DNA of 9,829 bases from a virus (lineage: Duplodnaviria; Heunggongvirae; Uroviricota; Caudoviricetes), in the IMG/VR virus record IMGVR_UViG_2681813261_000006. The stretch is one strand, 5' to 3'. Within the stretch, counting starts at the first letter, position 1; every line of letters starts with the position of its first letter. Below the pieces are notes generated by a model, which made no database searches, had not been told where the DNA came from, and saw nothing but the letters and a program-made list of their open reading frames with translations. Positions 437 to 9,739 of this stretch are shown one piece after another. The position numbers were made by a program, and so were the translations under genes.

Positions 437-524
437 TGCAAAAGTTGTCCTAATGGAACTTGGATCACAATAATTCCAAAAGCATCAAGTACTGGTACTA
501 TGATCCAGTTATAGAGAATGATAA

Positions 525-806
525 NNNNNNNNNNNNNNNNNNNNNNNNNNNNNNNNNNNNNNNNNNNNNNNNNNNNNNNNNNNNNNNNNNNNNNNNNNNN
601 NNNNNNNNNNNNNNNNNNNNNNNNNNNNNNNNNNNNNNNNNNNNNNNNNNNNNNNNNNNNNNNNNNNNNNNNNNNNNNNNNNNNNNNNNNNNNNNNNNNN
701 NNNNNNNNNNNNNNNNNNNNNNNNNNNNNNNNNNNNNNNNNNNNNNNNNNNNNNNNNNNNNNNNNNNNNNNNNNNNNNNNNNNNNNNNNNNNNNNNNNNN
801 NNNNNN
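525..806. other. Run of 282 N (assembly gap or masked sequence)
   Basis: Directly visible; no sequence information. Confidence 0.99.
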
Positions 807-826
807 AAACTCAATCAATATACTAA

Positions 827-1138
827 TCATTCAATAATCCCCACGGCATATACCCAAAAATGTTTACCCTTCACAAAGAGCTTTTTACTCTCAATTAGAA
901 ATACAGGCATCTTTTCACCCTGTAATTCCCATTCAAGTACTTCACCAACTTTGAAATCTTTCTTCTTCTCATAAATAACGTTCATATAGCTATCAATCTG
1001 ATAATTACTTTTCTTAACGACCTTTTGAAATTTCTTATCAAGAAAACATTTGTTAATTGGCATACTATTACCATCTGGTGTCATGCCATTTAGCTTAATC
1101 TTGCTTATTAAATCACCATAATGTTGCTCAAAATTCAT
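827..1138 (-). CDS. Hypothetical protein, 103 aa
   Basis: ORF with ATG at 1138-1136 overlapping the upstream gene's TGA stop by 4 nt (ATGA), which implies translational coupling. Stop TGA at 829-827, 20 nt from the N-run. No motif recognised. Confidence 0.5.
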   Translation of the reverse strand: MNFEQHYGDLISKIKLNGMTPDGNSMPINKCFLDKKFQKVVKKSNYQIDSYMNVIYEKKKDFKVGEVLEWELQGEKMPVFLIESKKLFVKGKHFWVYAVGIIE

Positions 1139-1713
1139 TGTCTACTTATCCTGAATGTTCCCTGAATACCGCTCATAATTACCCTTACACCATCATTGGC
1201 TTCCTTATAGAAGTCATAGATAAGGCGACGTTGTTTCTTCTCACGTAAGCCAATTACACGTTTGGTTTTCTTCTTGGTATCTTTCTTTGCGGTATCAATT
1301 AATCGTTCTTTACCATTCTTACCCTTCACTACCTTATATCGTTCACTTAAAAGATTCTTTTTCAGTCCTGAAATGTTGCCCTGCTTAGTTAATCTTGTAG
1401 ATGAAGTAGGTATAAACTTATCAATTGCCTTTGGCTGTACCAGTACTTGATAAAGGTACTTAGCCTGAATATCTTTAACCATGATGGTCGATGTAACTGA
1501 ATTTCTCCCAACCTTTCTATAGAAGAAAAGGATGGAACGTTGAGTAAAGCCCACTGCCCCACGGTCAACGCTATTATTCAAATCACCCTGCATTCTTTGG
1601 GATAGTAGCTTGGAACGTTTAATTATTTCATTCTGGAATTGATTATTTAATCTAACTCCCTGCGTTTGTATATAGTTCCTTATACTACCAATCCCATTTA
1701 TTCCACTTGCCAT
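1135..1713 (-). CDS. Hypothetical basic protein, 192 aa, Lys/Arg-rich C-terminal half
   Basis: ATG at 1713-1711 with GAGGT Shine-Dalgarno 6 nt upstream; the upstream gene's TGA stop sits inside that SD (TGAGGT). C-terminal half is very basic (KKDTKKKTKRVIGLREKKQRR), suggesting nucleic-acid binding. No family recognised. Confidence 0.6.
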   Translation of the reverse strand: MASGINGIGSIRNYIQTQGVRLNNQFQNEIIKRSKLLSQRMQGDLNNSVDRGAVGFTQRSILFFYRKVGRNSVTSTIMVKDIQAKYLYQVLVQPKAIDKFIPTSSTRLTKQGNISGLKKNLLSERYKVVKGKNGKERLIDTAKKDTKKKTKRVIGLREKKQRRLIYDFYKEANDGVRVIMSGIQGTFRISRQ

Positions 1714-2193: not shown

Positions 2194-2643
2194 ATGAGCG
2201 ATTTAAAAACACGATTAAAAGAATATGAAGGTACTAAAGAGTATCAGGCAAATTTGAAGTACTTCAGAAATGGGAAATTCTATCCATATGCTGATAGTTT
2301 AGGATGTAGTACTATTGGATATGGTCACTTAATTCAGGCGGGAGAAGATTTTAGTACTGGCATTACTGAAAGCGAAGCAGACAAGTTACTATCTCGCGAT
2401 TTAGCCAAAACAATTATGCAGGTACAGACATTAGGGTTAAATCTTCCCGATGACTGGAATGATTTTATTATTATCATGACCTTCCAGTTAGGTATTGGCG
2501 GGGTGAAGAAATTCCGTAAGATGTTAGCAGCCCTGAAAGCACATGATTACCTTGAAGCAATTAAACAGGCTAAGTGTTCTCTATGGTACAGGCAGACACC
2601 AAACCGTGTGAATTCCATGATTGCAGTACTTAAAAACAAATAA
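2194..2643 (+). CDS. Endolysin, T4-type lysozyme (glycoside hydrolase family 24)
   Basis: 149-aa ORF with ATG at 2194 and AGGT 9 nt upstream. Collinear with T4 lysozyme: EYEG, then YADSLGCSTIGYGH (Asp and Thr of the catalytic region, TIGxGH motif), ITESEADKLLSRDL, MTFQLGIGGVKKF, and C-terminal SLWYRQTPNRV (compare WYNQTPNR). Stop TAA 2641-2643 is followed by a terminator hairpin. Confidence 0.9.
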   Translation: MSDLKTRLKEYEGTKEYQANLKYFRNGKFYPYADSLGCSTIGYGHLIQAGEDFSTGITESEADKLLSRDLAKTIMQVQTLGLNLPDDWNDFIIIMTFQLGIGGVKKFRKMLAALKAHDYLEAIKQAKCSLWYRQTPNRVNSMIAVLKNK

Positions 2644-2645
2644 AG

Positions 2646-2683
2646 AAAAGGCATAGTACGAATGACATACTATGCCTTTTTTT
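2646..2683. terminator. Bidirectional rho-independent terminator between convergent genes
   Basis: Perfect 9-bp stem GGCATAGTA (2650-2658) pairing with TACTATGCC (2668-2676), 9-nt loop, T7 tract 2677-2683 on the plus strand and A-rich run 2644-2649 (T-rich on the minus strand). Sits between the lysozyme stop and the minus-strand 90-aa gene stop (2682-2684). Confidence 0.6.
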
Positions 2684-2954
2684 ATGGTCGTTGTTTCTGC
2701 TGAAGAATTGCAATAATCCTTTCAATCTTAACATCAAGTTCATGGATTTGTGTTTCCAGTTTACTTAGTGTATCTCTCATCTTATCCTGATCATCCTCAA
2801 TACGGGAAATACTACTTTCCAGTACAGCAATGGTAGTTTCAAGAGTAGCAACGCGAGTTAATAGATCATTCGTATCCTTTGTATTATCTCTAAAGATAGT
2901 ATAAAGGAATACGCATCCAGAAATAACAAGAGCTAAAATAGCACCGATATCCAT
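2682..2954 (-). CDS. Small membrane-anchored coiled-coil protein, 90 aa; candidate i-spanin-like or superinfection-exclusion-like protein, function unknown
   Basis: ATG at 2954-2952 with AAGGGA about 7 nt upstream. N-terminal hydrophobic segment IGAILALVISGCVFLYTIF (residues 3-21), then a charged heptad-patterned helix (LLTRVATLETTIAVLESSISRIEDDQDKMRDTLSKLETQIHELDVKIERIIAIL). This predicts a type II membrane topology. Confidence 0.6.
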   Translation of the reverse strand: MDIGAILALVISGCVFLYTIFRDNTKDTNDLLTRVATLETTIAVLESSISRIEDDQDKMRDTLSKLETQIHELDVKIERIIAILQQKQRP

Positions 2955-2965
2955 ACTGAAATCCC

Positions 2966-3013
2966 TTTGTTGTTATTGTTATTGTTATTGTTATTGTTAT
3001 TGTTATTGTATTA
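2966..3013. repeat. Hexanucleotide tandem repeat: six perfect GTTATT units (2972-3007) plus degenerate flanking units; (AATAAC)n on the minus strand
   Basis: Directly visible: tttgttg then six GTTATT units then gtatta. It fills most of the 56-bp intergenic space between the 218-aa gene stop (3011-3013) and the 90-aa gene RBS/ATG (2954). Confidence 0.9.
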
Positions 3014-3667
3014 ATACCCTGTAAATGTCGCCAATGCTATCTGGATACCATTATTCCCCATTGCCTGGCGGTAGGTTTTCTGGTTCTTTGAAACGTACTG
3101 TAGACTGAATGAAGTACTGGAATTACGCCTGATAACCAGACCAGAGTACCCAATTACTGTACCATCATCTGATATGTTCCCCGGACATTGTGACCAGCAG
3201 AACCAGGGATCAGCTACTGGAGACGTTACCGTAATGGCAGTACTGAGATCGGTAGCCGCAGGTGCTGTCAAAAATCCCCTGATACGTGGCATTGTTGCCG
3301 CTGATGCAGCAGACCAGATTAAAGTACCTTCTTCACTGAACACATCAAGAAAACCAGATGTGGGGGTAGCCGTGTGACTACTTGTCATGAACCTGCCCAT
3401 GCCAGGCTGGAACATATAGGCACCAGGGAAACACCATGCCCCGTCTTTCTGTATCTGGAACCAGTACTGTGTTGTGTTCCTGTTAGCTACTACTGATGGC
3501 ATAACGAAACCGAGCGATCCACCATTACCGAAGGCACAGGTAAAGCCTGTGTAGTATCCCGTATCAGTTAGATTTCCCATGGCCTTTACTGCACCCGTCA
3601 TTATCGACTTGTTAGTACTATCTATAGTCAGTGCACCCGCTGAATTATATACCTCGAAACCTGCCAT
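3011..3667 (-). CDS. Putative tail-associated protein, 218 aa; distal paralog of the 98-aa gene
   Basis: ATG at 3667-3665, 1 nt after the TAA of the preceding gene (TAAgATG). Rich in Gly/Ser/Thr/aromatics with 6 Cys. N-terminus MAGFEVYNSAGALTIDSTNKSIMTG parallels the neighbour's MAQGLQCWNAAGVLVVDLTDYNIRFMG. Position is directly downstream of the J-like gene. Confidence 0.6.
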   Translation of the reverse strand: MAGFEVYNSAGALTIDSTNKSIMTGAVKAMGNLTDTGYYTGFTCAFGNGGSLGFVMPSVVANRNTTQYWFQIQKDGAWCFPGAYMFQPGMGRFMTSSHTATPTSGFLDVFSEEGTLIWSAASAATMPRIRGFLTAPAATDLSTAITVTSPVADPWFCWSQCPGNISDDGTVIGYSGLVIRRNSSTSFSLQYVSKNQKTYRQAMGNNGIQIALATFTGY

Positions 3668-4122: not shown

Positions 4123-7821
<3,699 letters not shown>

Positions 7822-9002: not shown

Positions 9003-9102
9003 TTTGTTACCTCGAATATCTTCTTTCTTTATTTATTTAAAAACCTCGATTCGTATTTTTTTTAACAGGCTTGATTGGCAGGCTGCATCCGTCATCGTTG
9101 CT

Positions 9103-9739
9103 ATGTTGTTATTTGCAGGCCAAATAGGCTATAACGCATATGATAAATGGAAAGAAAGTTCAGATGATGTTTTTAAGATGCGTGTAATCTTATTGAGCGA
9201 AATCAANNNNNNNNNNNNNNNNNNNNNNNNNNNNNNNNNNNNNNNNNNNNNNNNNNNNNNNNNNNNNNNNNNNNNNNNNNNNNNNAATAGGCTATAACGC
9301 ATATGATAAATGGAAAGAAAGTTCAGATGATGTTTTTAAGATGCGTGTAATCTTATTGAGCGAAATCAACAATAACCTTTTAGCTCTTGCTACTGGTGGC
9401 GATGAGTCTCAGGTGTTAGGCACATATGAAATATGTATTCCTCTTCCAACTGAAGATACAGAAGCTATTAAAAGAGTAGCAACTGCCGTTTCTTATTTGC
9501 ATGATGATGTATATTATTCCCAATTAGAAAAATTAGCATCACTCCCAAAAAAAGAAGTAGATGCCATCGTAAAGAGTTATTATTCATTATCGAGATTACG
9601 TACTCTTTCAACACAGCTTGCATACAATATTAAATACTCACCACCTAAAGTTAAATTATTGCGGGAAGAGTATTACAATCTCTATACCCTTTCATCTTCT
9701 CTTTCACAATATTTGTCTTATCACACGGAAAATCCCTAA
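9103..9739 (+). CDS. Hypothetical protein, oriented opposite to the tail operon; reading frame interrupted by the N-run at 9207-9285
   Basis: The ORF-track start at 9004 is a TTG one nucleotide from the divergent ATG of the M-like gene, so it is unlikely; the first in-frame ATG is 9103. The two track ORFs (9004..9297 and 9341..9739) join into one frame only if the 84-bp duplicates flanking the N-run are collapsed, giving ...DDVFKMRVILLSEINNNLLALATGG... Stop TAA 9737-9739. No family recognised; no clear Shine-Dalgarno for any candidate start. Confidence 0.4.
9123..9369. repeat. Exact 84-bp direct repeat (9123-9206 and 9286-9369) flanking the N-run; probable unmerged contig overlap
   Basis: Both copies read aataggctataacgcatatgataaatggaaagaaagttcagatgatgtttttaagatgcgtgtaatcttattgagcgaaatcaa; identity stops exactly at the N boundaries. 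Confidence 0.9.
9207..9285. other. Run of 79 N (scaffold gap, probably artefactual)
   Basis: Directly visible; flanked by identical 84-bp sequences. Confidence 0.99.

Follow-up and report, generated by a model that had tools for sequence, protein, structure and literature searches.

A leucine-zipper membrane protein beside the lysozyme gene of an uncultured enterobacterial prophage lineage: a possible releasin-like lysis accessory

What might a small membrane-anchored protein be doing between the tail genes and the lysozyme gene of a prophage lineage in which no spanin is recognizable? This question is raised by a 9,829-nucleotide (nt) stretch of viral DNA (Caudoviricetes; IMG/VR record IMGVR_UViG_2681813261_000006), the whole of which is referred to here as the window. 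The minus strand of the window holds an open reading frame (ORF) at positions 2682–2954 that encodes a 90-amino-acid (aa) protein. Lysis by phages of Gram-negative bacteria is usually described in terms of a holin, an endolysin and a spanin, and a first-pass annotation of this DNA, made from its letters alone, had given the 90-aa protein the topology of an inner-membrane spanin subunit (i-spanin), while also considering an unusual lysis component or a block to superinfection.

The reading we favor, tentatively and with somewhat less than even confidence, is that the 90-aa protein is a releasin-like or holin-partner lysis accessory protein. It is favored because of the association of the gene with those of a lysozyme and a holin and because of a remote similarity to the DUF2730 family; on the same two grounds the unusual lysis component of the first-pass annotation is the best supported of the proposals, with the qualification that the lysis role itself is one that we infer. 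The two-residue acidic N-tail would be translocated to the periplasm, residues 3–21 would cross the inner membrane and a dimeric zipper of about 65 residues would extend on the cytoplasmic side (N-out/C-in). As the final gene of the tail operon, the ORF would be expressed late and would supply a protein that assists the membrane step of lysis together with a holin of three transmembrane segments (3TM) and a soluble lysozyme, in a manner likened to the lysis proteins with a single N-out/C-in transmembrane domain (TMD), namely the Mu gp25 "releasin" of the DUF2730 family and mycobacteriophage LysF1b. Unlike a spanin, it would not bridge the periplasm.

A conserved gene of an uncultured prophage lineage

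A Shigella sonnei contig (L004) and two prophage contigs from IMG/VR (L026 and L027) were 99.95–100% identical to the window outside its masked runs of N. An intact relative of about 33 kb was found in yegD of E. coli (NZ_CM151386.1, 1811455–1844594; L021:10956-44095). This element has a serine recombinase followed by terminase, portal, capsid, tail tube, tape measure and J-type tail tip genes and then the block that contains the ORF, and its lysozyme and holin were closest to models from gene transfer agents (GTAs; BaGTA BgtA and GTA_holin_3TM). The ORF is a core gene of this uncultured, approximately 33-kb serine-recombinase prophage lineage of Enterobacteriaceae. Neither the ORF nor a closely similar block was present in the cultured phages of INPHARED: searches with the region by megablast, with the ORF by tblastn and with 22 concatenated family members by tblastn returned no matches. 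From the rest of the element, the neighboring gene product p192 had one weak match among cultured phages, and the capsid protein matched over only about a quarter of its length (residues ~20–190). Megablast of complete E. coli genomes also gave no matches, and distant blastn found only degraded or divergent copies.

Homologues of the 90-aa protein fell into 113 clusters at 56–82% identity and are encoded on chromosomes of Enterobacter, E. coli, Klebsiella, Cronobacter and Lelliottia. The ratio of nonsynonymous to synonymous substitution (dN/dS) of the ORF against relatives (dS 0.4–1.8) was 0.09–0.25, and the ORF is therefore a real, conserved gene under purifying selection. The family is small and compact, as a hidden Markov model (HMM) search of 1.84 billion representatives returned only 55 clusters, nearly all of 79–103 aa. 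It is also widespread: an 89-aa variant, P0043, was by itself recorded in 883 contigs, mostly of Enterobacter, and the family was present in E. coli, Shigella, Klebsiella and Cronobacter as well. A borderline member of uncertain homology (P0155, 103 aa, with an RR junction; E 1.7e-4) was seen in a high-GC phage contig (L069:5630-6864), where it lies between three small multi-TM holin-like ORFs and just 5' of HNH and TerS genes, a lysis-cassette-like setting in an unrelated phage.

No curated model in NCBIfam, PADLOC or Pfam matched the 90-aa protein above threshold, and all of the sub-threshold matches were coiled-coil noise (PspA, SMC, LmuB, JetC and similar). The names that public databases give to homologues P0001, P0011, P0054, P0059 and P0108 (PspA/IM30 family protein, septal ring factor EnvC, phage shock protein A, CwlO-like peptidoglycan hydrolase) were rejected as cross-matches between coiled coils, with no model above threshold, so that the misleading PspA/IM30, EnvC and CwlO-like labels can now be corrected for this family. 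A profile search of the PDB with the family found generic coiled coils only, and Foldseek with the single-helix model found no matches in BFVD.

The full product of the ORF is MDIGAILALVISGCVFLYTIFRDNTKDTNDLLTRVATLETTIAVLESSISRIEDDQDKMRDTLSKLETQIHELDVKIERIIAILQQKQRP. Its N-tail consists of M1 and D2 only, with no basic residue, and is followed by the transmembrane helix, a juxtamembrane motif and eight heptads (Table 1). In alignment A1, whose numbering is that of the ORF minus 1, columns F20, R21, D22 and D26 were invariant, and the consensus was kept in alignment A2. Heptad position a is mostly I or V, with Q56 as the sole polar residue (V35, I42, I49, Q56, L63, I70, I77 and L84), and position d is mostly L (L31, L38, L45, I52, M59, L66, L73 and I80). 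Beta-branched residues at a, leucine at d and one buried polar residue are the pattern of a parallel dimeric leucine zipper, and the heptads thus suggest that the zipper of the 90-aa protein would be dimeric. AlphaFold2, run with an alignment of 38 sequences, modeled residues 2–87 as one continuous helix (mean pLDDT 94.8). The N-terminal membrane segment and coiled coil proposed in the first-pass annotation were thereby borne out. The protein was also considered as a lipoprotein by way of the sequence ISGC at residues 11–14, and this was rejected: the n-region has no basic residue, hydrophobic residues follow the cysteine and many homologues have L or S in place of Cys14, the family having no conserved cysteine.

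Predicted topology, spanins and the similarity to Mu gp25

The topology was predicted from the charges flanking the helix in 38 diverse members of the family. Lysine or arginine was found in the N-tail of none of the 38, whereas at least 26 had an aspartate or glutamate there, and a lysine or arginine opened the C-terminal flank of the helix in 37 of them, usually within [FY]-R-D-x-x-x-D. The soluble domain was slightly anionic (mean net charge −1.9). By the positive-inside rule, the 90-aa protein is probably N-out/C-in, with its zipper facing the cytoplasm. The Mu gp25 group has the same charge pattern (MD...TM...RR), unlike the i-spanins of Mu, D3112 and BcepMu, in which the N-tail contains lysine or arginine.

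It is highly improbable, in our judgment, that the protein is an unusual i-spanin, that is, an N-in/C-out protein with a periplasmic coiled coil whose partner has escaped recognition or that acts alone on the outer membrane. Weak matches to Rz-like families were obtained (phrog_739 in 14/38 members, best 3.8e-6, with the transmembrane helix included in the match; phrog_89; phrog_7686; and the LysB model TIGR03495), and the juxtamembrane FRDN resembles the YRDN of lambda Rz. That no spanin was found in the intact 33-kb relative also leaves an outer-membrane step unaccounted for. Against these points, the charge bias is the reverse of that expected and a conserved cysteine is absent. The Rz-like PHROG families matched only at 1e-3 to 4e-6, the LysB model gave 15–16.5 bits against a cutoff of 92.75, and the family HMM scored below 3 bits on each of the three i-spanins of Mu, D3112 and BcepMu, compared with 18.4 bits for Mu gp25. 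The single helix of about 65 residues (~10 nm) stops right after the zipper, with no C-terminal region for binding a partner, and the protein is shorter than typical i-spanins, as the first-pass annotation had remarked.

That annotation had likewise seen no lipoprotein outer-membrane subunit (o-spanin) alongside, and an all-frame search of positions 2560–3080 for an ORF with a lipobox indeed gave only the protein's own unconserved ISGC. No ORF with a lipoprotein signal was found in the whole window or in the relatives L021 (whole prophage), L005, L007 and L012, and neither an o-spanin nor a u-spanin was present in any frame of the window or of these four relatives. Since L021 is free of lipoprotein-signal ORFs throughout, it has no recognizable spanin; the only further membrane proteins that it encodes are one with a signal peptide and the 61-aa product of an unannotated early-region ORF. 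By every criterion tested, the 90-aa protein is predicted not to be a spanin, and the i-spanin topology first assigned to it is not supported.

Matches to the releasin family, by comparison, were recurrent. The PHROG matches that took in the transmembrane helix were to phrog_1009 (unknown function; 17/38), to phrog_739 and to phrog_736 (12/38), of which Mu gp25 is a member (5e-33). The phrog_736 match was 1.8e-7 at its best among the 38 members and 3.1e-4, over residues 6–84, for the window protein. PF10805 (DUF2730) was matched by 6/38 members at E<0.01 (best 4.8e-5), and the match spanned the full length of the L021 orthologue. Alignment of the family (A2) with 13 sequences of the Mu gp25 group (A3) in hhalign gave a probability of 82.5% (E 1e-5, 38 columns), although generic coiled coils in the PDB score similarly; the alignment covers the end of the TMD, the juxtamembrane junction and the first heptads. 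With single sequences, the hhalign probabilities were 15% for Mu gp25, 2.6% for FtsB, 1% for BcepMu gp25, 0.5% for lambda Rz and 0.2% for the i-spanin Mu gp23. In a search with the family HMM of every ORF from the lysis regions of Mu, D3112 and BcepMu, Mu gp25 was the top match. BcepMu gp25 was discarded as a bridge to DUF2730 as it had no Pfam match to that family. The similarity is recurrent and sub-threshold throughout, and the 90-aa family may be a remote homologue of the releasin/DUF2730 family.

The features by which releasins have been described (PMC9239132) were in part found here. The 90-aa protein is near 100 aa, has an N-terminal TMD, is predicted to be N-out/C-in and is encoded no more than five genes from an endolysin. 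At the junction of TMD and cytoplasm, where releasins have a twin arginine or Arg-Lys, the family has R-D-(N/K/R)-x-x-D, one basic residue followed by Asp. The carrier is not a Mu-like transposable phage: the host element has a serine recombinase, small and large terminase subunits, a J-type tail tip and no transposase. In architecture and predicted topology, the 90-aa family is the same as the releasin family.

Gene order, the lysis neighborhood and competing explanations

In 55 related loci the genes are arranged as J, p98 and p218 (both optional), the ORF, a terminator, the lysozyme gene (inverted), a GIY-YIG/SegE-like gene, p192, p103 and a gene for a 97-aa protein; beyond it lie variable cargo (AbiGi, DUF2806, methyltransferase and others) and then the prophage end. 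The Enterobacter versions lack p218, and in them J is followed immediately by the ORF. The coordinates of the corresponding features in the window are given in Table 1. The description of the ORF as lying at the end of the tail operon, convergent with the endolysin gene over a shared terminator, was confirmed, as it is the last gene after J, p98 and p218.

Table 1. Positions of the 90-aa ORF, its parts and its neighbors in the window
Feature	Position	Strand	Remarks
Candidate holin gene, GTA_holin_3TM type	498..830	-	97 aa in relatives; 3' coordinate unreliable
Soluble T4-type lysozyme, 149 aa	2194..2643	+	PF00959 E 1e-11; phrog_7 endolysin, phrog_13211; convergent with the ORF
Bidirectional intrinsic terminator common to the ORF and the lysozyme gene	2646..2680	.	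15-bp stem, A-/T-run flanks
90-aa ORF, bitopic membrane protein with leucine zipper	2682..2954	-	MDIGAILALVISGCVFLYTIFRDNTKDTNDLL...ILQQKQRP; ATG start
Eight uninterrupted heptads, residues 31–84	2703..2864	-	Read from sequence; helix in AlphaFold2 model
Conserved juxtamembrane motif R22-D-N-T-K-D27	2874..2891	-	Family consensus [FY]-R-D-x-x-x-D
Transmembrane helix, residues I3–F21	2892..2948	-	Kyte-Doolittle 19-residue mean 2.42; family-wide conservation
Shine-Dalgarno AAGGGA, 7 nt 5' of ATG	2962-2967	-	Relatives: G-rich ribosome-binding site at the same place
Hexamer repeat TTGTTA (plus strand; TAACAA on coding strand), 6.7 copies	2970..3009	.	In 56-nt spacer between p218 stop and ORF start
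Upstream gene p218, DUF8377/phrog_4524	3011..3667	-	Optional accessory after J
J-like tail-tip gene	4123-7425		Followed by p98, p218 and, as last gene, the 90-aa ORF

In each of the 55 loci of the initial set, the lysozyme gene lay directly 3' of the ORF; of two rearranged variants that were identified afterwards, one keeps this adjacency and the other lacks the lysozyme. In the divergent locus L024 the two genes are consecutive and co-directional. In L072/L073 p192 and p103 are placed 5' of the ORF, and the ORF, lysozyme, GIY and holin genes are contiguous. Correlations of pairwise distances over 48 distinct loci put the ORF closest to the lysozyme (rho 0.61), with values of 0.50 each for the ORF with J and with p192. 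The lysozyme of the window has no N-terminal hydrophobic or signal-anchor-release (SAR) segment and therefore needs a holin. The holin candidate is visible in the window only in its first eight codons (MISILIEF, 807–830), the remainder being under the N mask at 525–806; contigs L026 and L004, which are identical to the window outside the masks, encode it as a full 97-aa protein. Its orthologue in L005 matched PF11351 (GTA_holin_3TM) with 25.3 bits against a cutoff of 24.8, and also the holin family phrog_3427.

The hairpin between the two stop codons has a predicted RNA folding energy of −22.5 kcal/mol (z = −7.2 versus shuffled sequences), with the stop codon of the ORF 1 nt away, and relatives have a hairpin at the same position with different stem sequences. 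The first-pass annotation had correctly placed the ORF just downstream of the hexamer repeat. This repeat was present in the identical prophages L026 and L027 and reduced to about two copies in the 95%-identical L028, and distant relatives have only an AT-rich spacer. The repeat is thus a lineage-specific expansion that lies outside the conserved unit; it could be a hypermutable simple repeat in the 5' spacer of the ORF. The spacer is short (28–68 nt), promoter-like sites were not above chance (five found versus 4.4 expected), and a conserved repeat or promoter 5' of the ORF was accordingly discarded. The Rfam search of the window found no RNA families.

These features bear on whether the ORF is a superinfection-exclusion gene, i.e., one for an inner-membrane protein that blocks DNA entry of related phages in the manner of cor or llp. 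Exclusion genes typically follow receptor-binding or tail-tip genes (cor of T1/phi80 and llp of T5), and the ORF, which encodes a small membrane protein of a temperate element, stands directly after genes of this kind and keeps its place after J in L070/L071, with no lysozyme gene beside it. By the marks of a moron, a terminator is present. On the other hand, the ORF is found in every related locus, next to J proteins ranging from 1067 to 2324 aa, while the true moron slots vary in content (AbiGi, DUF2806, DUF726, DUF6216). With a short spacer and no promoter signal above chance, the gene is probably silent in the lysogen, and a core gene of the late operon without a recognizable promoter of its own argues mildly against exclusion. 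The unconserved Cys14 and the n-region devoid of basic residues also speak against a lipoprotein of the Cor/Llp type, and the PADLOC matches were coiled-coil noise only. We regard an exclusion function as quite unlikely.

A place at the end of a structural operon could also point to a structural or morphogenetic accessory of the tail, or to a membrane function outside lysis and exclusion, such as tethering the assembling tail tip to the membrane or modulating host division as FtsB/FtsL do. The ORF is always the terminal gene of that operon, its distance matrix correlates with those of J and p192 as well, and weak FtsL- and FtsB-like matches were obtained. The FtsB/FtsL similarity is, however, at the level of noise, the association with the lysozyme and holin outlasts the rearrangement in L072/L073, and no case of a zipper anchored in the membrane is known to us from the assembly of siphovirus tails. 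Such a function seems unlikely to us.

The favored reading, that of a releasin-like or holin-partner lysis accessory, has to be set against several observations that weigh against it. The synteny is drawn entirely from a single prophage lineage in which gene order is fixed, and adjacency is therefore weak evidence for a functional link. In L070/L071 the ORF stays after J while the lysozyme and GIY genes are absent from that position. The data suggest that the lysozyme and GIY-YIG genes may have been inserted as a cassette and may move or invert together, perhaps through the action of the homing-endonuclease-like gene. Types of holin have been swapped between prophages that are 95–100% identical and carry an identical ORF (L026 versus L028), which argues against a sequence-specific pair of ORF and holin. 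The DUF2730 scores are below the PF10805 gathering threshold of 24.9 bits (16.0 for P0108 and 17.9 for the L021 orthologue), and PF10805 is absent from the matches listed for the window protein (the best 25 of 43). In the PDB, the family profile matches coiled coils of unrelated proteins (E 1e-6 to 1e-3) and, as in the case of phrog_739, the "Rz-like spanin" PHROGs are matched with a frequency close to that of phrog_736, so that matches driven by the coil are unspecific. The charge rules behind the topology are fallible and would mispredict lambda Rz. Lastly, a SAR endolysin is required in the one releasin mechanism demonstrated so far, and because the partner lysozyme has no N-terminal hydrophobic segment, that mechanism of endolysin release cannot apply as described.

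Several observations concern the neighboring genes themselves. The lysozyme gene (plus strand) and the gene for the 144-aa SegE-like GIY-YIG protein (minus strand) form a divergent pair at 1723–2643 that is present or absent together, being missing in L070/L071, and the lysozyme gene is inverted relative to all of its neighbors except in L024. In L070/L071 a 55-aa protein with two TM segments starts 4 nt past the ORF and is followed by p192 and p103. The p192 gene (192 aa; window 1135–1713, minus strand; L021:42903-43484) encodes a very basic C-terminus and in L073 stands 5' of the ORF beside a tail-fibre-like gene. Its product correlated with the N-terminal 500 aa of J (Spearman rho 0.87, 1128 locus pairs) and probably belongs to the tail or another structure, not to the lysis apparatus. 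The holin was the most independent gene in the distance correlations and has two allelic types (L026:8122-8406 versus L028:8122-8403; window ~498–830), one of them 36–43% and the other 76–100% identical to the L005 copy; co-variation of ORF and holin was ruled out, since holin alleles exchange independently of the ORF.

Runs of N at 146–436, 525–806 and 9207–9285 hide real genes. Two of these runs, of 282 and 291 nt, correspond to 151 and 255 nt in the otherwise 100%-identical L026, and the numbering is thus not colinear with that of relatives across the masks. Between the tail genes, positions 9004–9739 (plus strand) contain ORFs on the opposite strand for proteins of 97 aa (with a hydrophobic segment, partly masked) and 132 aa (no family match). 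This slot holds other cargo in relatives (DUF726 in L005 and DUF6216 in L011) and is therefore a variable moron site.

Implications and comparison with known lysis proteins

Work on Mu gp25 (2022) and LysF1b (2026) showed that lysis can depend on additional small single-pass proteins of N-out/C-in topology, and the 90-aa family is a widespread, uncharacterized candidate for a protein of this type. What is new here is a family resembling releasins in a non-Mu background with a holin, a non-SAR lysozyme and no recognizable spanin. The family bears on a question that arises from PMC9239132, whether releasin-like action occurs outside Mu-like phages and without SAR endolysins, and on how an enterobacterial phage lacking spanins breaches the envelope. 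A more far-reaching version would have the 90-aa protein found a new family of single-TMD N-out/C-in lysis proteins with a cytoplasmic leucine zipper in Gram-negative, non-Mu temperate phages, as a distant releasin/DUF2730 offshoot. Its partners would be a soluble endolysin and a GTA-type 3TM holin, with which it might act as co-holin or trigger, and no spanin is recognizable in the lineage. This fuller proposal we consider doubtful; were it correct, releasin-like factors would be a general and overlooked fourth component of lysis and not a peculiarity of Mu.

The closest of the known systems is the Mu gp25 releasin (PF10805, phrog_736; PMC9239132). The two proteins are alike in size (99 aa for gp25 versus 90 aa), in having a single N-terminal TM helix after a short acidic N-tail (MD...) with a basic residue at the presumed cytoplasmic boundary, and in having a helical, slightly anionic C-terminal domain. 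Both genes adjoin that of an endolysin, and the sub-threshold similarity covers the transmembrane and juxtamembrane region. Genes for DUF2730 proteins lie no more than five genes from that of an endolysin, and the endolysin of the pair can also be a non-SAR (cytoplasmic) one (PMC9239132). The differences are that the 90-aa family is below the Pfam gathering score, has an R-D-N/K junction instead of the RR of gp25, and has a perfect zipper of eight heptads where gp25 has a Pro/Gly break (IPGTED). Where gp25 belongs to a transposable phage, its carrier is a siphovirus-like prophage with a serine recombinase, and the partner endolysin lacks a SAR domain and is accompanied by a holin.

With the i-spanins (lambda Rz, P2 LysB and Mu gp23) the protein shares a coiled coil behind an N-terminal TM helix, a gene position close to the endolysin and weak PHROG and TIGRFAM matches. 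Unlike them, it has no o-spanin partner, the opposite charge bias and no conserved Cys, is about half as long with one helix rather than two, and resembles neither Mu gp23 nor lambda Rz in profile comparisons.

A single-TMD N-out/C-in holin-like protein, LysF1b, has been described from mycobacteriophage (DUF2746; PMC13056207). The likeness is in predicted topology, general size and the company of soluble lysins and a holin-like protein with several TMDs. In the list of the 25 families matched most often by the 38 members, PF10874 did not appear, and the 90-aa family differs further in belonging to a Gram-negative host and in its C-terminal leucine zipper, compared with the highly charged tail of LysF1b. 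XhlA of Bacillus PBSX (PF10779) is likewise a small membrane-anchored coiled-coil lysis accessory encoded beside a holin and a lysin, and its coil part was matched by 9/38 members. These matches were confined to the coil and below cutoff, and the architecture is the reverse: XhlA has its coil at the N-terminus and its TM helix at the C-terminus, whereas the 90-aa protein begins with the helix and ends with the zipper.

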